Shown here in pieces: positions 261-28,942 of a stretch of 41,525 nucleotides of DNA (positions within the stretch are counted from its first letter, which is position 1; each line of letters opens with the position of its first letter). This DNA comes from a virus: IMG/VR virus record IMGVR_UViG_3300025174_001715; one strand, given 5' to 3'. The notes under the pieces are model-generated. The model was not told the DNA's origin. It worked only from the letters and a program-made list of their open reading frames with translations, and searched no databases. The position numbers and the translations under genes were made by a program.

Positions 261-1253
261 ATGACATCAAATTACGAAGTCAAATACGCAGGTGGCAAAA
301 TCAAAGCCATCGTTATCGGAGTAATTTTAGTAGTAATAATCGCCATTGTCCTTTCAGCAGGAATTAAGATCGTTGATGCAGGGCATAGAGGTATTTTATT
401 GCACTTCCAACAAATTGACGGAGTTCAATGTGACGAAAAAACAGGCGACTGTATAGCAATCAAACCTCCTCTTAAGGAAGGGATGCACTTTGTTGTACCA
501 TTCCAAGATGATATAGTCCAGATGGAAGTCAGGACACAAAAGTTTGAAAAGACAACAGGTGCAGGTTCAAAGGACTTGCAGGGAGTTTCAACCACAGTAG
601 CAATTAACTATAGGGTTAGTCCTGAATCAGCAAACCTGCTTTTTGCAACAGTTGGGTTGGATTATACAGTTAGAATCATAACACCAGCAGTAGATGAAGT
701 AGTAAAACAGATCACAGCAAGGTACAACGCAGAGGAACTTATCACCAAAAGGGAAATTGTCAAAGGAGAGATTGTTCAGGCATTAGGTCAAAGACTAGCA
801 AGGTTCAATCTTCTACAACAAGAAGTCAGTATTACTGACTTTCAATTTTCGACACAATTCTCTAATGCAGTTGATGCCAAAGTAACAGCCGAACAAAATG
901 CAAAAACTGCTCAAAATGTAGTAGCGATCAAAGAAGCAGAAGCACAACAGGCTCAAGCTGTAGCACATGGAATACAGCTTGCAGCAATTGAAACAGCAGA
1001 AGGTGTAAAACAAGCACATATCCTTGAAGCAGAAGGTATAGCTCAAGCAATTACAATCCAAGCTCAAGCAAACCAAGAGGCAATTAGATTGCTAACAGAA
1101 ATGTTAAGAAACAACCCAGAGTATATTGAATATCTGAGGTTATTGCAGTGGAACGGTCATTTACCAGACACATTGATTATTACAGATTCGGAAGGAAACA
1201 ATCTACTATTACAAATACCGACAAAAACCATACAACAGCAATCGCAGGAGTAA
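261..1253 (+). CDS. SPFH / band-7 / prohibitin-like membrane protein
   Basis: N-terminal TM helix; motifs IVDAGHRGIL, GMHFVVPF, SKDLQ, INYRV, ELITKRE, ITDFQFS; Ala/Gln coiled coil; YIEYLRLLQWNGHLP end. Confidence 0.93.
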   Translation: MTSNYEVKYAGGKIKAIVIGVILVVIIAIVLSAGIKIVDAGHRGILLHFQQIDGVQCDEKTGDCIAIKPPLKEGMHFVVPFQDDIVQMEVRTQKFEKTTGAGSKDLQGVSTTVAINYRVSPESANLLFATVGLDYTVRIITPAVDEVVKQITARYNAEELITKREIVKGEIVQALGQRLARFNLLQQEVSITDFQFSTQFSNAVDAKVTAEQNAKTAQNVVAIKEAEAQQAQAVAHGIQLAAIETAEGVKQAHILEAEGIAQAITIQAQANQEAIRLLTEMLRNNPEYIEYLRLLQWNGHLPDTLIITDSEGNNLLLQIPTKTIQQQSQE

Positions 1254-4418: not shown

Positions 4419-4774
4419 AAACGAAATCTGTAACAAATCAAGTTTATTGTTGTGAAGTATGTACTTATGAATCACCTAATAGCACAATGTTCAACACTTG
4501 CCTAGTATGTACCAAAAATTACTGTGTTTTGAATTGCAAGAGTGATTTGTATTTCATTTACAATCAAAATGTATGTAGAATATGCAAGGATAACCCAATG
4601 GTTGAAGAACTTACAGACAAGTGGCTAAAAGAATGGCGTGAGAAACTACCATTTGTTAAAAAAAGTTACCAAGACATAAGTAAGGAGGCTCTAAAATTGG
4701 ATAAGAGATTTGCAAAAGACTGGAAAGAGAATTTGGAGAAATACGAAGAAGAACACAGAGATTTAACACCATGA
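4415..4774 (+). CDS. Cys-rich zinc-finger protein
   Basis: CEVC, CLVC, CxxxC, CRIC; ATGA-coupled at both ends. Confidence 0.7.
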   Translation: MKTKSVTNQVYCCEVCTYESPNSTMFNTCLVCTKNYCVLNCKSDLYFIYNQNVCRICKDNPMVEELTDKWLKEWREKLPFVKKSYQDISKEALKLDKRFAKDWKENLEKYEEEHRDLTP

Positions 4775-5220
4775 GTACATGCAAGTCAGACAATTCTTTT
4801 TTCTTTATATTTATTCCAGTTATGGTGATGATGCTTCTCATAGTTAATCTAAGCTCAATCTCAAATAATAATGAGGATAGTTTGTTGACAGATGAACAGA
4901 AATTAGCAAAACAAAAAGTAATGGCACTGGAAAAAGAAAAGGAGTTCATCAAAAAACAAGAGGAGGCAAAATGGTGGGATGATCAGATAACCTACGTGTT
5001 AAATGAGAAACCACTTCCGATAGTTGGGATTGGCGGAATGATAATTTTTCTCACGTTAATTAAGACATCACAAATGAAAAGTGAATTTGGTATGATCTTT
5101 GGTGGTAGATGGAGATGGTTAAACTGGTTAAACATGCCATCAATCATTGTAATTTTTACAGGAATGATATATCTTGCATGGTTAGCTGGGTATGTTAATC
5201 TTACAGGTGCAGAAATATGA
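4771..5220 (+). CDS. Multi-pass membrane protein
   Basis: Three hydrophobic segments. Confidence 0.7.
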   Translation: MSTCKSDNSFFFIFIPVMVMMLLIVNLSSISNNNEDSLLTDEQKLAKQKVMALEKEKEFIKKQEEAKWWDDQITYVLNEKPLPIVGIGGMIIFLTLIKTSQMKSEFGMIFGGRWRWLNWLNMPSIIVIFTGMIYLAWLAGYVNLTGAEI

Positions 5221-5665: not shown

Positions 5666-5695
5666 TAGGTTATAGAAATTATGGGAGGTAATAAA

Positions 5696-5723
5696 GTTAT
5701 AAGTTTAAGTTATAAGTTTAATA
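5696..5723. promoter_or_regulatory. 28-bp element, copy 2, upstream of the TIGR array
   Basis: Identical to 231-258. Confidence 0.7.
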
Positions 5724-5746
5724 AGTTAGAATCCGATCCACTAACA

Positions 5747-7639
5747 ATGACAGGGGGAACGAGTCAAAACAAAATTGAAGAACGAAATCATAATCCGAGG
5801 CAAAACGATATTGAATTACAAAAAGATCGTCCGAGTCAGATTCCACTTGAAGAACACGCCAACTATCCGAGTCATTTTCATGTTGAAAAACACTACAAGA
5901 ATCCGAGTCATCTAGTAATTGAAAAACAGGAAAACGATACGAGCCATGATGGTTTTGAAGAACACATAAATGATTCGAGTCATAAAAAGCATGAAAAACA
6001 TAATACAGTTACGAGTCACAAACCACATGAAAAACAAGATTTGATTCCGAGTCACATAAATATTGAAGAACAAAAATTAGATCCGAGTCAATCAATATAT
6101 GAAACACATGATAAACTTCCGAGTCATAGGTTTGTTGAAAAACAAAGTAAAGATCCGAGTCAATGTAGAATTGAAGAACATAATCAGTATCCGAGCCAAA
6201 TGGAAGATGAAAAACGGAAAAAGCTTTCGAGCCAATCAATAATTGAAAAACATAAGATAGATTCGAGCCAAAAGAATGTTGAAATACAACATGTCAATTC
6301 GAGTCATGTAGACCTTGAAATTCAAAAGACGAATCCGAGTCACGATCCATATGAAAAACATGGTGTCATTACGAGTCAATATTTCGTTGAAGAACAAATC
6401 AATTATCCGAGTCATACCAACTTTGTAGAACAAAGTAACAATCCGAGTCAGTATTGGTTTGTAGAACAGAACAAAGATTCGAGTCAATTCATGCTTGAAG
6501 AACAGGAAAAAAATCCGAGTCAAATAATAATTGGAAAACAATTTTCATATCCGAGTCAATACTTGATTGAAATACAAAGAGTTGATACGAGTCAAAATAA
6601 AATTGAAGAACAAGCTAATAATACGAGTCACCAACTACATGAAGAACATGGTGTAATTCCGAGCCACACACCAGATGAAGAACATCGAATAGTTTCGAGT
6701 CACAGACCAATTGAAAAACATAATTATGATACGAGTCAAACCATATTTGAAATACAGAACGGTTATCCGAGTCATAGAACAGATGAAAAACAAAAGAATA
6801 ATTCGAGTCATTCATTTATTGAAAAACATAAATATAATTCGAGTCAAAGTTTAATTGGAATACATGACAAAGATCCGAGTCCTATCAAAATTGAAACACA
6901 TGGCAGGAATACGAGTCACAGTTTAATTGAAAAACAAAGCAGGGATACGAGTCACAGTGTAAATGAAAACCAAAACACTCTTGCGAGTCAAAAGAAAATT
7001 GAAGAACATGCGGAACTTACGAGTCTAAAGCATCTTGAAGAACAGAACAACTATACGAGTCATTTTCCAATTGGAGAACAATATTGGCATCCGAGTTATT
7101 TCTTAATTGAAAAATATGGCAAAGATACGAGTCAAAGTTTACTTGTAGAACATAAAAAAAATCCGAGTCATTGTACGATTGAAGAACAAAATCATAATCC
7201 GAGTCAAAATTTCTTTGAAGAACACTATGATAATACGAGTCACATAATAATTGAAAAACATGTTTCATATCCGAGTCAGTATTCTCTTGAAGAACAAGTC
7301 ATGAATTCGAGTCAAAGTTTATTTGGAATACAAAATGAACATACGAGTCATATGATGCTTGAAAAACAGGATGAGCATACGAGTCATCATGTAAATGAAA
7401 AACAAATGAAAGATCCGAGCCAAAACATTATTGAAGAACAAACTAATCATTCGAGTCAATTTCCATTTGAAGAACAATATGCGAATTCGAGTCATAGTAT
7501 AAATGAAAAACAAATAGTTGTTCCGAGTCATACAACCATTGAAAAACATATAGAATATTCGAGTCATCAAAAATTTGAAAAACAAGACACGCATACTAGT
7601 CCTAATCGCTTTGAAAAACAAATGGATGATACGAAATGA
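5747..7639 (+). CDS. Stop-free reading frame spanning the TIGR array (12-aa periodic PSH/Q-xxx-EE/KH/Q-xxx); protein status uncertain
   Basis: ORF track gives 5681-7639; ATG 5747 lies downstream of the promoter element; stop overlaps the tasA ATG. Confidence 0.45.
   Translation: MTGGTSQNKIEERNHNPRQNDIELQKDRPSQIPLEEHANYPSHFHVEKHYKNPSHLVIEKQENDTSHDGFEEHINDSSHKKHEKHNTVTSHKPHEKQDLIPSHINIEEQKLDPSQSIYETHDKLPSHRFVEKQSKDPSQCRIEEHNQYPSQMEDEKRKKLSSQSIIEKHKIDSSQKNVEIQHVNSSHVDLEIQKTNPSHDPYEKHGVITSQYFVEEQINYPSHTNFVEQSNNPSQYWFVEQNKDSSQFMLEEQEKNPSQIIIGKQFSYPSQYLIEIQRVDTSQNKIEEQANNTSHQLHEEHGVIPSHTPDEEHRIVSSHRPIEKHNYDTSQTIFEIQNGYPSHRTDEKQKNNSSHSFIEKHKYNSSQSLIGIHDKDPSPIKIETHGRNTSHSLIEKQSRDTSHSVNENQNTLASQKKIEEHAELTSLKHLEEQNNYTSHFPIGEQYWHPSYFLIEKYGKDTSQSLLVEHKKNPSHCTIEEQNHNPSQNFFEEHYDNTSHIIIEKHVSYPSQYSLEEQVMNSSQSLFGIQNEHTSHMMLEKQDEHTSHHVNEKQMKDPSQNIIEEQTNHSSQFPFEEQYANSSHSINEKQIVVPSHTTIEKHIEYSSHQKFEKQDTHTSPNRFEKQMDDTK
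5758..7638 (+). repeat. TIGR (tandem interspaced guide RNA) dual-repeat array, 52 units of 36 nt
   Basis: Exact 36-nt period (edge repeats at 5758+36n): TNCGAGTCA-N9-TGAARAACA-N9. Constraint is at nucleotide level: invariant NCG and AG(T/C) codons. Last units are degenerate. Directly upstream of a Nop-fold gene. Confidence 0.93.
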
Positions 7640-8538
7640 GTAATTCAAAAAAATCAAAGAACATAATGCGAGTGGAATATCAAGAACCACAACTTATTCC
7701 ACTTCCAATTATGCGAGGCTTGGTAGAAATTTTCTATGACTTTCAAGGACAGCGAATAGCTACTTTCAATAATGTATTGATGAATTGCGAACGAAATGGA
7801 ATCTCCGAAGAAGACTTGGAGAAAAAATATGGAGTAAAATCACTCATTGACGAGGCAAAAACTTTTGAAGATAAGATTAAGAAAAGACTCGATTCAGAAG
7901 TTGTTAATTATAAAATCTATGACAAATACTTGCAACATATCCAGGGTATAGGTTCAATTCTTTCCGCAGGATTAGTTGCTAACATTGGTGACATCGCAAA
8001 GTTTGATACTATATCAAAACTATGGATGTATGCAGGTTTAGGGTTTAACAAGTTTTGTCCAGAGTGTGAGCATCCTACTTTTGTAAACGTAGAATATGAA
8101 GATCGTGAAGGCAATATAACTAAAGGAAAGAAATTAAAACCATTTGAAAATTGTCCAGAATGTAATCACAAAACAAACCCAATAATTCAAAAGCGAACCA
8201 AAGGCTACCAAGATAATTGGAGTCCAAGATTAAGAGTTTTATGCTGGAAGATCGGTTCAAGTTTTGTAAAGCAAAAAGCAGCCAAGTCAGGCTATAGAAG
8301 AATTTATGAAAGTTTCAGACGAGATGATACAGAATTTCATCCAACAAAAGTGAAGGAAAATGGCAAGACAAAATACAATGACGGTCACATGTATAACCGA
8401 GCTGTAAGAAAAACTGTAAAGATTTTCATGAGTCACCTATGGATTACATGGAGAGAGATGGAAGGCTTGGAAGTAAAAGCACCCTATGTAGAAAAAGTTT
8501 TAGGCCACGATATAATTAAGCCATTCAAGGACAGATGA
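7636..8538 (+). CDS. tasA: TIGR-associated TasA-like protein (Nop/IS110 C-terminal RNA-binding fold, no RuvC/HNH), with Cys4 insertion
   Basis: LVEIFYDFQGQRI coiled coil; YLQHIQGIGSILSAGLVANIGDIAKF…SKLWMYAGLG; KRTKG…NWSPRL…WKIGSSFVK; GHMYNRAVRKTVKIFMSHLW…WREMEGL…PY…LGH; adjacent to the array. Confidence 0.88.
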   Translation: MSNSKKSKNIMRVEYQEPQLIPLPIMRGLVEIFYDFQGQRIATFNNVLMNCERNGISEEDLEKKYGVKSLIDEAKTFEDKIKKRLDSEVVNYKIYDKYLQHIQGIGSILSAGLVANIGDIAKFDTISKLWMYAGLGFNKFCPECEHPTFVNVEYEDREGNITKGKKLKPFENCPECNHKTNPIIQKRTKGYQDNWSPRLRVLCWKIGSSFVKQKAAKSGYRRIYESFRRDDTEFHPTKVKENGKTKYNDGHMYNRAVRKTVKIFMSHLWITWREMEGLEVKAPYVEKVLGHDIIKPFKDR

Positions 8539-23666: not shown

Positions 23667-23960
23667 TTGTCATACGAAGAATCTGGGGTGGATGCACCAC
23701 TTAACCCAAATAGACCTAAATCAGCAATTGCTTTACCACCATCCCCATCAGCAGCATTTGATACTTTAGTTGATCAGTCATATACACAGCCAAGACCAGA
23801 AAGGGAAATAATGTCTGACATTGAATCCAGTTTTTCATTTTCTGATACAGATTATCGAGGACAGCATGGAAGAAATGTTCAGGAATATTTTGGTATAAAA
23901 CAAAAGAAAACTTTTGGCCCTCAAAATTTACCACATCGTAAAAAGAGGTTTGGTTATTAA
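23667..23960 (+). CDS. Disordered hypothetical protein
   Basis: TTG start 35 nt after the promoter; TAATG-coupled to the giant ORF. Confidence 0.7.
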   Translation: MSYEESGVDAPLNPNRPKSAIALPPSPSAAFDTLVDQSYTQPRPEREIMSDIESSFSFSDTDYRGQHGRNVQEYFGIKQKKTFGPQNLPHRKKRFGY

Positions 23961-26900
23961 TGGCACAAGGAAGATCAGCTCCAAAGAAAGCTACACCTTC
24001 AAAACCATCTGCACCTTCAAAACCATCTGCACCTTCAAAACCATCTGCACCAGCACCAAAACCTTCTGCACCTTCAAGAACTGAACGTGGTCCTTCTACA
24101 CCAGCACCAGCTCCAAAAGCTGCACCAGCACCATCTGCACCAGCACCAAAACCTTCACCAGCACCAGCTCCAAAACCTGTATCCGCACCAGCAAAACCTG
24201 CACCAACACCAGTTTCAGTTTCAAGAACTGAAAGAGGATTTGCTGCTGCACCACCTTCAGCTCCAAAAGCTGCACCAGTTATTTCAATTCCAAAAGCAGC
24301 AGTTCCTAAAGTGCCAACATCACAACAGGCGTATGTTAGTGCTGCTGCACCTTCACCTCCACCAAAAGCTGCACCAGCTCCTTCAAGAACTGATAGAGGG
24401 CCAACAATAAGACCAACAATAATTTCACCCGAAGCTTTAGTAGAAGACGAATCTTTTGCACAACAAGCATTTGCAGAAGAACCATCTTATGAGCAGCCAT
24501 CATATCCACCAGGAACAACTCAATTCATAGAAGAACGAGAAGCAGTAACTCAATTCAGAGAAGAACGAGAAGCTGAAGAACCATTTACACCATCAATGGA
24601 AATTGATACTAGACAACCAGAAGTTGATCGAGCAATTATTTATGAACCAATTGCACCACCACCTCCACCTCCCCCACCAAAAAAAGAAGCTAAAAAATTA
24701 CCAGAACAACAATTTGCAATCGGTGCTGTAGATACTGAAGGGAAAGTAACAATATTACGAACATCAGGAGAGGTTGGAAAAGTTTCAGTTGCAACAGCAG
24801 AGAAGTTAGCAGCAGCAGGAAAAATTGCATCAGGACAAGATTATGATATTTTCCAAACCATTACAACAAAAGTAAAAGGTGCAAAACCTGGACCTGTAGG
24901 TGGCATACTGTCAGTTGGACCAGAAAAGCCATTGGTGTCACCTACACGATTAGAAATCGGTGAGCCACCAAAATCAAAAGAACAATTGCGAGAAGAAACT
25001 TTAGCATTTAGAGCTGGCATATCTCCAAACATAAGTCTATTTGATATATCACAAGCTAGATTACGAGAAGATGAAATTTATGGGCCAGGAGAAGTAATTG
25101 GCAAGCGTGATCTAAAAACAGGAGAGTTCGTACCATTAGCAGGTATAGAAAAAGAAGCTGTTGATATTATCAGACGAGAACAAGATATTGCAAGAGTAGC
25201 AAACGCATTACAAGCACAAAGATTCATGGACATTACAGGTGCAAAGTCTGGTATAGATGTTTTAGCAAAAGAGGAAGAACTTCAAAAGAAAGGCATACAA
25301 CAAATTATTGAACCACAGTTTACTTTTGGTGCATATCAAGCTCCGTCAGATGTTCCATACTTTGAGGAAAGACCAAGAATAGGAGGAGTTGATACGCCTG
25401 AAAAATTGGCAGCAATTAAAGAAAGAATTGAGAAAACACCACGAGCCTCACTTCAGGAAACATTAGGTTTTGGAGTTCCAGTAGTAACAACTGAAACTAT
25501 TGTTGAAACTGAATTCATACCAAAAGCAGGAGTAAGTAAAGCCCAACAACAGGAATATTTCCCACCTGTTTCAATCCCTGAAGACAAATTACCTACATCA
25601 ATAGAGAAAACAAAGACTGGAACAGCAGAAAAGTTACAACAGTTTGGTTTTGGTATTAGTCCAGAATTTCTAAAAGGTGTTACACAGCAAGAAATTAAAT
25701 ATGATGAACCAGGAAAAATTGCAAAGCCAGTACCACTTTCAGCCGAAGCAAAAGAATATCGTGCAACACTCAGCCTTGGTGATAGACAGATGTTGGAACA
25801 ATTAGAGGGCTATCCACGTGCAGGAATACCAAAAGCACAGGTTGATATTTTATCCCCAGAAGAAGCTTCAAGACGAGATGTATTTGGTGAAGAATCATAC
25901 TTAAAACCTACTTCACCATTTGGTTCGGTAGTACAAGGAATACTTACACCAGCACCACTACATCTTGCAACTGGCATTGAACGAGCAACAGGTGTTCAGA
26001 TTGTTCCAAAACAGGTAAGTGGATTCTTTACAGATATTGGTTCTGCATTTTCAGCAGACATTGAGAATGAAGCAATTGCAGTTGCAAATGTTCAAAAATT
26101 AGCATCAGGGCAAGCTCAACTAGAATACAACAGAACACCACAAGAAAGAGTATTTGGTGGAACAATTGAAAACGCATTTGGTTCTGCATTTCCAACTCCA
26201 CTGATCAGTGAACCAGATACACAGGGAATGGTTGATGCACAGTTAAAAAGTGGACAAATTGTAAAGGTGTCACAAACAAAAGCACAAGAACTTGCAAGTG
26301 AAGGCAGACTAGAAACAGTTGGTGGCGGTGGTGCAGCACAGTTCAAGGCAACAGAGTCACAGATTTTCAGTAATGAGTTAACATCATTTTTACAAAGACC
26401 AGGCTTAACGATTGGTAGTACAGCCGAATTTGTAGGATCTGCAATACTTGGTGGAAAGGTAATATCTGTTTCAGCAAAAGCAGTTTCAAAAGGAGTCAAA
26501 GCACTTAGAGGTATACCAGCAGCACCAGCAGCAGTAAGGGCTGCTGAAAAACCATTTGCACAAATTAGCCAAGAATTTATTCCAACAACTGAACCTACCA
26601 GTACAATTACAGGAAAATTATTAAAAGGATTTGGCTCAATTACAGAAAAAGTTTCAAAGACAAAGGAGAAAGTTACACAGTATTCAGCAATAACTGGACA
26701 GCCGATAGGAAAAACAAGAGAAATCTCAACAGTTGTAACAGGAAAAGAGATTGAAGATTTAAGAAAATATAACTTACAAAAAGGAATTAAAATTTCCTAC
26801 GATAGAGCAAAAGACTTAATCATTGAATCAAGAAAAAGAAAAGTTCCATTAGGTGAAGCATTAGCTAAACCATCTGATAAAGAGATTCAAGCATTTGCCA

Positions 26901-28942
26901 TTGATAACCGAATTTCCATCGAACAAGCAAAAACAGAATTAGCAAAAACAAAACTAGCTGATCGCTATGCCGATTTAGGTTTTAAAGTTGAGAAAAAAAT
27001 TACAAAGAAGGGAGTAGTAAATAAAATAGTTCCAGATGATGTTGCAAAACAATATGAGGCATTTGAAAATGAATTGGTAAAACAAAATAAAAAAGCATTG
27101 GAAGCAAGTGGAAGAAATATTCTAAGTCCAGAGCAAACAGCCGAGTCGGTTAAAATGGCAGCAAGCAAGGCTGCTGGTAAAGGTGTTAAAACAGAAGAAG
27201 AACTAGCAGAGGAATTTTATCACCAAGCAGGACATAAAAAAGAGTTCATTCCAGAATATTTACGAAAGGAATTATCATTAGGCGAAGGTGTGTATGGCAG
27301 AGCTCCAGGAACACTTGGTTCTCCAAGAATCAAAGGTTCTCCTGAACTAGCAATTAAAGCTACAACCGATGAACTTTTAAGAATTAGAATAAAAGAACTA
27401 ACAGGCGAACCATTAACAAAGTTTGAAGTGACAGCATTAGAATCGGCTGCATTTGAAGCTCCTAAAAAAACAGCAACACAACAAGCTGGTAGAGTTGGTG
27501 GAATTATCAGAGGAGATGATATTTATCGATTTGGTCAAAGAGCTGATGAAGGACTAGAAGGAGTAGGAAAATCTACAACAAAACGACCACCACCTGTAAG
27601 CCCAGCAGGAGGACAGCAAGTTAGACAAATCACAAAAGAACAAATTGCTAACTATGCAAAAATTCGTGGAGTTTCAAAAGAAAGTGCAGAAACAATTCTG
27701 ACAAAACAAGCTGAACGAGAAGCAGGCCGAACAACAGGTAGAGTTGCAGACATCTTTGGTGGACAACCAGATACAAGTACAAGGACATTATTACAAATGC
27801 AACGAGGCATACTTGATCCCGATACTGGATTAGATATTTTGCGTGGTGGCAGACAAGCAGGACAAGGAATAGAAGATTTTGGAGAAACTTTCTTAACACA
27901 ATCAGGACGATTAAGACAAGTATCAAAAGAAACTACAACATTACTTACACCAAAAGGAACATTAAAACAAGTTCCAACTGATGATCTTTCAAGAATCACA
28001 AGCGTTGGTGGACAGTTTAAGAGAGTTAAAAGTTTAGGACCAGCAGATGACTTTTCACGAATATCAAAAATTGCAGATGAATCATTATCAGGTGAATCAC
28101 TTCTTGGCAGAAGGGCTGTATCAAGAGGTGGACAGATTTTTGAAGAACTTGGAGAACAAGGTGGCAAACGAGGTGCAAGAACAGGAAGCCAAATATTTGA
28201 CGATTTAGGAGAGGCCAGTCTGAAAACTACATCAAAAGCAGATGATTTCACTCCATCTCTAAAAACTGTAACACCAAAGAAGGGAGTAAGGCCACCATCA
28301 TTAATACCAAAAATTGCTGTAGGTGGAGCTTCAAAGATACCTTTAGGTCTTGGGGAGGCAGACATATTTGGACAAGGAAGTAAAAGTGATCCCTTTGGTG
28401 CAATAATTCCAAAAGTCGGTCAGGATGTTTCACAAATTCCAGGAAGTATAACAGATATTTTTACAGGTACTAAACAAAAAGAAAAAGGCGGTCTACGAGG
28501 TGGAGTATTGCAAGAAACATTTTATGAACAAGCACAAGGACAACGAGGAAAACAAAAATTGAAAACCCAAACACCAACTACACAACCAACAGCATATGAT
28601 CAGATGTTTAGTCCAATTCAGTATCAACAATTCCAATATCCAGAAGGAGGAAAGCCAGCAGAACCAGGGGGAAGACGAGGGCCAATATTTGATTACTTTG
28701 GTGATAGCGAAAGATCAGGTGACGCATCATCAAGTGCAAGGAAGTTTTATCGAGTATTTGATGTTGGTCGTGATGTAAAAGGTAGGCCAACTCCATTTGG
28801 CAGAGTGTCACGTGGTTTAGGTGTCCAAGTACAAAGTTCACGCGAGATCGGTGAAATTGAAGATGTTTTAGGACCAAGAAAAAGAGGTAAAAAGCCTATT
28901 CAAGAAACATACTTTAATATTGACTTTCAGAATTATTTCTAG
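23960..28942 (+). CDS. 1660-aa low-complexity protein (Pro/Ala/Lys-rich N-terminus), probable virion or genome-delivery protein
   Basis: Long uninterrupted ORF in a late-promoter unit; no recognisable enzymatic motif or signal peptide. Confidence 0.8.
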   Translation: MAQGRSAPKKATPSKPSAPSKPSAPSKPSAPAPKPSAPSRTERGPSTPAPAPKAAPAPSAPAPKPSPAPAPKPVSAPAKPAPTPVSVSRTERGFAAAPPSAPKAAPVISIPKAAVPKVPTSQQAYVSAAAPSPPPKAAPAPSRTDRGPTIRPTIISPEALVEDESFAQQAFAEEPSYEQPSYPPGTTQFIEEREAVTQFREEREAEEPFTPSMEIDTRQPEVDRAIIYEPIAPPPPPPPPKKEAKKLPEQQFAIGAVDTEGKVTILRTSGEVGKVSVATAEKLAAAGKIASGQDYDIFQTITTKVKGAKPGPVGGILSVGPEKPLVSPTRLEIGEPPKSKEQLREETLAFRAGISPNISLFDISQARLREDEIYGPGEVIGKRDLKTGEFVPLAGIEKEAVDIIRREQDIARVANALQAQRFMDITGAKSGIDVLAKEEELQKKGIQQIIEPQFTFGAYQAPSDVPYFEERPRIGGVDTPEKLAAIKERIEKTPRASLQETLGFGVPVVTTETIVETEFIPKAGVSKAQQQEYFPPVSIPEDKLPTSIEKTKTGTAEKLQQFGFGISPEFLKGVTQQEIKYDEPGKIAKPVPLSAEAKEYRATLSLGDRQMLEQLEGYPRAGIPKAQVDILSPEEASRRDVFGEESYLKPTSPFGSVVQGILTPAPLHLATGIERATGVQIVPKQVSGFFTDIGSAFSADIENEAIAVANVQKLASGQAQLEYNRTPQERVFGGTIENAFGSAFPTPLISEPDTQGMVDAQLKSGQIVKVSQTKAQELASEGRLETVGGGGAAQFKATESQIFSNELTSFLQRPGLTIGSTAEFVGSAILGGKVISVSAKAVSKGVKALRGIPAAPAAVRAAEKPFAQISQEFIPTTEPTSTITGKLLKGFGSITEKVSKTKEKVTQYSAITGQPIGKTREISTVVTGKEIEDLRKYNLQKGIKISYDRAKDLIIESRKRKVPLGEALAKPSDKEIQAFAIDNRISIEQAKTELAKTKLADRYADLGFKVEKKITKKGVVNKIVPDDVAKQYEAFENELVKQNKKALEASGRNILSPEQTAESVKMAASKAAGKGVKTEEELAEEFYHQAGHKKEFIPEYLRKELSLGEGVYGRAPGTLGSPRIKGSPELAIKATTDELLRIRIKELTGEPLTKFEVTALESAAFEAPKKTATQQAGRVGGIIRGDDIYRFGQRADEGLEGVGKSTTKRPPPVSPAGGQQVRQITKEQIANYAKIRGVSKESAETILTKQAEREAGRTTGRVADIFGGQPDTSTRTLLQMQRGILDPDTGLDILRGGRQAGQGIEDFGETFLTQSGRLRQVSKETTTLLTPKGTLKQVPTDDLSRITSVGGQFKRVKSLGPADDFSRISKIADESLSGESLLGRRAVSRGGQIFEELGEQGGKRGARTGSQIFDDLGEASLKTTSKADDFTPSLKTVTPKKGVRPPSLIPKIAVGGASKIPLGLGEADIFGQGSKSDPFGAIIPKVGQDVSQIPGSITDIFTGTKQKEKGGLRGGVLQETFYEQAQGQRGKQKLKTQTPTTQPTAYDQMFSPIQYQQFQYPEGGKPAEPGGRRGPIFDYFGDSERSGDASSSARKFYRVFDVGRDVKGRPTPFGRVSRGLGVQVQSSREIGEIEDVLGPRKRGKKPIQETYFNIDFQNYF
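23994..24050 (+). repeat. 18-bp tandem repeat CACCTTCAAAACCATCTG x3 (PSKPSA)
   Basis: Direct reading. Confidence 0.85.

Follow-up and report, generated by a model that had tools for sequence, protein, structure and literature searches.

Introduction

Dual-repeat TIGR-Tas systems, archaeal-virus examples included, were described in 2025 (Faure et al. 2025, PMC12045711). A later survey catalogued 4,126 arrays of the dual-repeat type and showed that TasA is an RNA-guided repressor (Xu et al. 2026 preprint, 10.64898/2026.09.09.750476). Among the Tas proteins with solved structures are TaTasR, from Thermoproteota archaeon LB_CRA_1 (9MTY, PMC12045711), and SpTasH, from Salicola phage CGphi29 (9W03, 9W04 and 21KL; PMC13421893), in which Y289 and H296 are the catalytic residues of the metal-independent cleavage of pre-tigRNA (PMC13421893). 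This Y/H dyad is given as a hallmark of the dual-repeat systems, whose Tas proteins normally have a compact core, and a link between tigRNA maturation and the translation of Tas has already been suggested (Xu et al. 2026, 10.64898/2026.09.09.750476). Here we analyse a stretch of viral DNA of 41,525 nucleotides (nt), the IMG/VR record IMGVR_UViG_3300025174_001715, which at its full length is called the window. On the combined testimony of its repeats and of the homology and predicted fold of its protein, the locus at positions 5758-8538 is very probably a dual-repeat TIGR-TasA system.

Results

Organization of the array

The dual-repeat TIGR array covers positions 5758-7638 of the plus strand, on which tasA and the other annotated features of the locus also lie, and consists of 53 edge repeats (UNCGAGUCA) enclosing 52 units of 36 nt. 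The order within each unit is the edge repeat UNCGAGUCA, spacer A (9 nt), the loop repeat UGAARAACA, and spacer B (9 nt). When the window was printed in rows of 36 nt, the register was unbroken over 5746-7617, with zero indels. A search for the edge repeat TNCGAGNCA allowing at most 1 mismatch returned 51 copies, always spaced by exactly 36 nt; a degenerate first copy (AACGAGTCA, at 5758) and a truncated last copy (TACGA.., at 7630) bring the edges to 53. This terminal edge repeat (7630-7638) is truncated at its 3′ side and leads into the start codon of tasA, and such a truncated edge as the array end has already been described (PMC12045711). All of the 52 spacer pairs are distinct. Column information separated two conserved 9-nt blocks, U13 N14 C15 G16 A17 G18 U19 C20 A21 and U31 G32 A33 A34 R35 A36 A1 C2 A3, interleaved with two variable 9-nt blocks. 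Tandem Repeats Finder detected the 36-nt period in fragments only, because approximately 50% of each unit is variable, and no Rfam family matched the array even with E-values up to 1. The row register and the edge spacing thus bear out a preliminary description of this DNA, which had claimed an exact 36-nt period over 52 units of alternating repeats and spacers.

According to the TIGRFinder grammar, a dual-repeat array is built of box C (3 nt), spacer (9 nt), and box D (2 nt) with gaps of 4 nt between them, and the edge is the repeat whose gap has complementary terminal bases (10.64898/2026.09.09.750476). The window array shows the 9+9+9+9 layout, with two repeats and two spacers per 36-nt unit. 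The edge core was CGAG in 51 of the 52 units, its terminal C and G being complementary, and the loop core was AARA-like and noncomplementary, which is the phase that this rule describes. In the loop repeat, box D was UG in 52/52 units and box C was ACA in 46/52; in the edge repeat, box D was U-N (C 23, A 15, U 12, and G 1) and box C was UCA in 41/52.

The preliminary description had also proposed that the repeats are constrained as nucleotides and not as residues. The codon counts agree with it, and the comparison with a close relative given below makes the case stronger. At unit positions 14-16 the codons were CCG 23, ACG 15, TCG 12, GCG 1, and ACT 1, which means that the first base varies freely and the wobble G is retained. 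Serine was written as AGT 45 times and AGC 6 times, plus one AGG in the same place, and glutamate as GAA 45 times and never as GAG, the other codons there being GGA (4) and GTA (3).

The TasA protein

By homology and predicted fold, tasA (7636-8538) encodes a nuclease-less Tas (Nop-domain) protein of 300 amino acids (aa). In a phmmer search against the PDB, it matched TaTasR (9MTY) with an E-value of 1.2e-34 at residues 114-318 of the latter, that is, in the Nop part past RuvC, and SpTasH with 1.3e-9. The AlphaFold2 model, built with 33 homologues, had a mean predicted local distance difference test score of 88.4 and showed helices 23-54 and 68-89 ahead of a helical C-terminal domain. When this model was submitted to Foldseek, ranks 1-10 were all TasR or TasH chains (9mty, 9w04, 9vzx, and 21kl), and the bridge-RNA recombinases IS621 and ISCro4 ranked below them, with E-values of about 1e-4 versus 1e-12 for Tas. 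The only significant Pfam match was Transposase_20 (PF02371; E 1.7e-5), limited to positions 2-40 of the profile, and in PHROGs the protein fell in phrog_4285 (E 2.6e-39), a family labelled "transposase."

No RuvC or HNH domain was found in TasA, as Pfam gave no nuclease family and the alignment with TaTasR begins past RuvC. Only about 22 residues precede the first long (coiled-coil) helix in the model, so there is no space for a nuclease domain. Lacking this domain, the protein counts as a TasA by the naming of Faure et al. (PMC12045711). It does not fall within the IS110 family, since the N-terminal DEDD (RuvC-like) domain is absent and Transposase_20 is only partial. The preliminary description of a Nop-fold protein without nuclease, placed directly after the array, therefore holds by phmmer, AlphaFold2, Foldseek, and Pfam; the comparison of 7636-8538 with Tas and IS110 structures that it had proposed gave the Tas structures as best and the IS110 recombinases next.

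Y284 and H291, encoded at the two ends of the segment 8485-8508, align with Y289 and H296 of SpTasH and form a putative metal-independent dyad for pre-tigRNA processing. In the alignment of the relatives (A1), the tyrosine is present in 32/33 sequences and the histidine in 33/33. Within the Nop C-terminal domain there is a Cys4 zinc-ribbon-like insertion (8056-8163; C141, C144, C173, and C176), recognised by the motif CPEC-x28-CPEC, with CPEC at residues 141 and 173, and by the beta strands that the model places at 137-184. TaTasR has just 2 residues at this site. All four cysteines are kept in 27/33 relatives. Two homologues, P0005 and P0007, have an extra helical insert of about 35 aa inside this insertion.

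The open frame of the array

A stop-free frame spans the whole array (5747-7639), from ATG 5747 to TGA 7637-7639. The frame probably starts at ATG 5747, as the ATG further upstream, at 5681, is not conserved (ATG AGG TAA in the close relative L006). The window array had 0 stops in this frame, and 18.9 were expected by permutation within spacers and 11.0 by a column shuffle, which preserves position-specific composition; the minimum across 2000 shuffles was 6 and 4, respectively. Only 4 codons per unit can become stops, the remainder being fixed by the repeats, and in the third frame the loop repeat itself supplies a stop, its UGA. The terminal TGA overlaps the ATG of tasA (7636) in a different frame. 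The array thus lies outside the reading frame of tas and is not an intragenic array in the window.

A total of 42 TasA homologues were found. L006 encodes a TasA 97% identical to that of the window, and its contig is assigned by binning to a Nitrosopumilaceae archaeon (UBA8516). Identity to the window protein is 72% for L001, 65% for L002 (74% in alignment A1), and 66% for L072 (76% in alignment A1). The open arrays of the relatives have 48-82 units. That of L002, with 81 units, had 0 stops versus 28.8 and 13.9 expected by the same two shuffles, and that of L072, with 52 units, had a single TAG with an ATG immediately after it. L006 shows length anomalies of +3, −3, and +5; the last holds an NN gap and becomes +3 without it, so that all are multiples of 3. 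In the contig of P0003, a gene of 553 aa was called up to the start of tas.

The most informative relative was L001, where a degenerate unit at 4720-4800 adds a net 8 nt and shifts the register of the array. Past this shift, the new frame was stop-free over 32 units, with 11.1 and 4.1 stops expected, and the prior frame contained 20 stops. At the same point, the encoded peptide switches from TSQ..EEQ to IRD..LKN. Considering that the frame remains open after the switch, it is openness that is conserved and not the peptide. In L001 the array open reading frame (ORF) and tas are in one frame, with TAA alone between them, and the stop/start junction reads TAAATG; in the window, L006, L002, and L072 it reads ATGA.

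A putative archaeal promoter (5696-5723) precedes the array and consists of a 13-bp tandem that includes two TTATAA boxes. From the second of these to ATG 5747 the distance is about 31 nt, which would give a leaderless transcript or one with a very short leader. The element is kept in L006, and L002 has TTATATA about 27 nt ahead of its array ATG. An identical copy of the 28-bp element occurs at 231-258, ahead of the SPFH gene (ATG 261), and both starts read ACAATGACA. The element probably serves as an archaeal promoter or operator common to both genes.

Conservation of the guides

The tasA genes of the window and L006 differ at 21.7% of their fourfold-degenerate sites but in only 9/301 residues. 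Units were considered orthologous when their spacers had no more than 3/18 mismatches. On this definition, 22/50 units of L006 have a partner in the window, 11 of them with identical 18-nt spacers. In the shared units, spacer divergence per site was 0.03 at the first codon position, 0.05 at the second, and 0.08 at the third, which is well below the neutral rate, bearing in mind that this selection of pairs biases divergence downwards; at a looser cut-off (5 mismatches), the values were 0.08, 0.07, and 0.12 in the same order. The "nonsynonymous" positions of the repeats differed much more, 50% of the shared units at N14 (first base of the P/T/S/A codon) and 23% at R35 (the E/K switch). Because the spacers are conserved at all codon positions while N14 and R35 vary, selection acts on the guides and, given the open frame, probably on the passage of ribosomes, and not on a protein. 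As judged from this alignment, the pattern is that of guide RNAs under purifying selection with turnover of units, the opposite of a protein-coding repeat.

The shared units of the two arrays (window 5758-7638 and L006 3104-5004) are mostly collinear and some are displaced, with L006 units 29, 47, and 17 corresponding to window units 11, 10, and 48. The unshared units of L006 have no window partner closer than background. Gain, loss, and shuffling of units appear cassette-like along the whole array, not at one end only. It was also observed that column 14, the second base of the edge repeat and the box D G of canonical arrays, differs in 11/22 orthologous units, which exceeds the 0.22 per site seen at the tasA fourfold sites; this column may be hypermutable or under diversifying pressure. 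Covariation between the last bases of spacers A and B was not seen in the window, where the counts (A/T 31, A/A 9, T/T 8, T/A 2, and G/T 2) correspond to independence. Neither in the window nor in L002, where these bases are ordinary variable spacer positions, did the pair (row columns 30 and 12) rank with the top pairs by mutual information.

The element and its host

The window has 33% G+C, with nearly all genes on one strand and mostly small proteins of unknown function. In Pfam and PHROG scans of about 25 of its ORFs, the matches were limited to SPFH, MT-A70 methyltransferase, LamG, SLOG, and PRTase-like ones; no capsid, terminase, or polymerase was identified among them, and terminal repeats are absent from the window. 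The link to a host is one near-identical contig, that of L006, binned with a Nitrosopumilaceae metagenome-assembled genome (MAG). From gene content and this contig, the window fits a virus or other mobile element of ammonia-oxidising archaea. Of the archaeal virus proposed in the preliminary description, the viral part is likely, with no virion genes identified among the ORFs scanned, and the archaeal part has its link in the Nitrosopumilaceae-binned sister copy. A scan of IMG/VR for TasA relatives and a megablast search of the neighbourhood against phage records returned no match.

An ORF of 1660 aa (23960-28942) has proline- and alanine-rich tandem repeats near its start (23994-24212; periods 18, 33, and 57) and only a weak match, to the C-terminal domain of DUF5817. 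It is possibly a fibre or envelope protein. In the window (261-1253) as in L003 (709-1569), whose TasA shows 52% identity, a gene for an SPFH/Band 7 protein is situated a few kb upstream of tas; the 9.9 kb of L003 examined yielded no array of 36-nt units.

Discussion

Proposed mechanism

Taken as a whole, these observations are probably best explained by a TIGR-TasA system carried by a Nitrosopumilaceae-associated virus-like element, with the array held open for the passage of ribosomes. The array and tasA would be co-transcribed from the double-TATA element at 5696-5723. By homology, TasA would bind the edge and loop repeats, and Y284 and H291 would cut inside each edge repeat, releasing 52 different tigRNAs of 36 nt. 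As in the published relatives, a TasA dimer with one tigRNA would then recognise a site of 18 bp, where spacer A pairs with one strand and spacer B with the other. Taking into account the published work on TasA, a protein without nuclease would block this site by steric repression instead of cutting it.

AUG 5747 would coincide with the 5′ end of the transcript or lie close to it, and the array frame ends on the start of tasA (ATGA). On our reading, ribosomes would have to traverse the array for a full-length transcript, for the translation of tasA, or for both, and the peptide itself would be irrelevant. Translational passage is the explanation of the open frame that we somewhat favour. A stronger form of it is offered tentatively, as it may well prove wrong: in this archaeal clade the array must be translated, with a ribosome loading near the 5′ end and traversing 52-82 units to tasA, and cleavage by TasA cuts this coupling and feeds back on its own synthesis. 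The resulting autoregulatory loop, with TasA cleaving the very RNA by which ribosomes reach its own start codon, is speculative. If true, it would connect guide-RNA biogenesis to translation in a new way, with openness, and not the peptide, being what selection maintains.

Alternative explanations

The open frame could also reflect true dual coding, in which the TIGR array encodes in addition a functional polypeptide of 630 aa made of 12-residue repeats, [PTSA]-S-[QH]-x-x-x-E-[EK]-[QH]-x-x-x, for example a disordered acidic/polar scaffold or a decoy. A frame open far beyond chance in five arrays would be expected from it, as would the slightly more variable third codon position of the spacers (10 versus 4 and 7 differences in orthologous units), and Tas proteins with disordered extensions derived from intragenic guides have been described (Xu et al. 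2026 preprint, 10.64898/2026.09.09.750476). Yet L001 reads its repeats in another frame for 32 units, as an unrelated IRD..LKN peptide; the residues at N14 (P/T/S/A) and R35 (E/K) change faster than the synonymous sites of tasA; and the array peptide has no Pfam or PHROG match. We consider dual coding unlikely. Quite improbable, too, is an array that is not translated and owes its open frame to a nonribosomal constraint, such as the mechanism that generates spacers or composition. It is true that only 4 codons per unit are able to become stops and that purine-rich first codon positions in the spacers alone lower their number, but column shuffles still expect 11.0 stops in the window, 13.9 in L002, and 4.1 in the second part of L001, against 0 observed. 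Moreover, the open frame of L001 tracks the actual reading frame and not the repeat register, the indels of L006 keep the frame, and the stop/start junctions with tasA are conserved.

Hardly credible is a reading without any guide RNA, in which an ordinary repeat-protein gene precedes an IS110-type transposase that was domesticated or has decayed. The absence of the N-terminal DEDD/RuvC domain and the precedence of the Tas structures over IS621 (E 1e-12 versus 1e-4) outweigh the Transposase_20 match (E 1.7e-5) and the "transposase" label in PHROGs; gene callers do annotate the array as protein in relatives, but the constraint falls on nucleotides and not on residues, and homologues carry like arrays in noncoding positions. 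The dual-repeat TIGR array with a nuclease-less Tas claimed in the preliminary description thus stands on homology, fold, array grammar, and the Y/H dyad.

Some observations weigh against a TIGR-TasA system whose array is kept open for ribosomes. T-runs are archaeal terminator signals. No depletion of T-runs was seen in the array, which gives no support to termination avoidance. Shine-Dalgarno-like motifs occur upstream of tasA (GGATGAT, GGTGAT, and GGAGTGAT), so its translation may not depend on coupling. The arrays of distant relatives lie downstream of tas, and that of L004 is not open and that of L005 is too short to test. Box C is UCA at the edge and ACA at the loop in place of the canonical CCA; in the edge repeat, box D is UN and not the canonical UG, its second base being free, so the published base pair between boxes C and D cannot form there. 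What the window repeats have in common with the canonical UG/CCA motifs is the leading U and the terminal CA. L005, a homologue with about 50% identity, has textbook UG..CCA in both repeats (TGCGAACCA and TGAAACCCA), and L009, a bacterial relative, has a similar array with the repeats GAGCGAGCCA and GACAGAAACA; these arrays make the family relationship clear, and the window clade is a motif variant.

The search for targets belongs on the same side, as no target above re-pairing controls was found in 666 kb (approximately 55%) of the Nitrosopumilaceae MAG of L006. An excess of matches of the L006 guides in this MAG over nucleotide-shuffled controls was gone when re-paired real spacers, a fairer control, were used. 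With both strand arrangements allowed, the 52 guides had, in the window outside the array, no self-target with 0-1 mismatch, 1 with 2 mismatches, and 19 with 3, equal to the result for shuffled guides. Searches of whole databases with 18-mers are not meaningful, because a site of 18 nt is short and chance matches are expected. The spacer search suggested in the preliminary description accordingly gave no match beyond controls in the window or in this part of the MAG, and its claim that the guides act against competing elements or host genes found no support in either. In the published papers, the natural targets of TIGR systems are given as unknown.

Significance

With this locus, the range of TIGR-TasA would come to include elements of ammonia-oxidising archaea, whose arrays of 52-82 guides are unusually long. 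The comparison with L006 is direct evidence of purifying selection, at the nucleotide level, on natural TIGR spacers. Spacer conservation together with cassette-like turnover of units implies real targets, and a dual-repeat array can stay open for translation whatever peptide it encodes, which makes a coupling of translation with array transcription, tasA expression, and guide processing a testable idea. There is also a warning for annotation, since the "hypothetical repeat proteins" of 550-990 aa upstream of these tas genes would be guide arrays.

Comparison with known systems

The closest solved relative is TaTasR, with approximately 30% identity over the Nop part. Both systems have 36-nt units, 9-nt spacers and repeats, an A-rich loop, and a complementary pair in the 4-nt edge core. 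TaTasR has an N-terminal RuvC nuclease (residues ~1-113), which is absent from the window TasA; its boxes are UG/CCA, whereas those of the window are UG or UN with UCA or ACA. Furthermore, TaTasR has a tryptophan at the position of the processing tyrosine and lacks the zinc-ribbon insertion, and its characterised array is downstream of the gene. SpTasH shares the C-terminal loop in which Y289/H296 align with Y284/H291 but differs in its HNH domain, its 8-nt spacers, and its bacteriophage origin.

By description, the window system resembles FpTasA (Faure 2025) and MbTasA (Xu et al. 2026, 10.64898/2026.09.09.750476), in which a Nop-only effector also stands beside its array. MbTasA binds DNA and represses transcription in a reversible and guide-dependent way, which is the function proposed for the window TasA. 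The window has 52 units and an archaeal host association, whereas the paper on nuclease-less TasA gives 5-15 units as typical. The earlier sighting of this architecture that PMC12045711 cites (Hochstein et al. 2016, its ref. 39) is a TIGR-like array in an archaeal virus, Acidianus tailed spindle virus, which infects a hyperthermophilic crenarchaeon and is likened to the window by description.

The intragenic tigRNAs (BlTasA and the TIGRFinder set; Xu et al. 2026) are the known case in which guide units are likewise read by ribosomes without breaking the frame. They are mostly stem-loop units inside the tas ORF, as disordered segments of Tas, whereas in the window clade a whole dual-repeat array of 52-82 units is a separate ORF that ends on the start codon of tasA. 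The identification is thus that of a known kind of system, correctly recognised. What goes beyond the literature consulted is the separate long array ORF abutting tasA and kept open in whichever frame it is read, together with the purifying selection on natural spacers, the variant of the box motifs, and the zinc-ribbon insertion.

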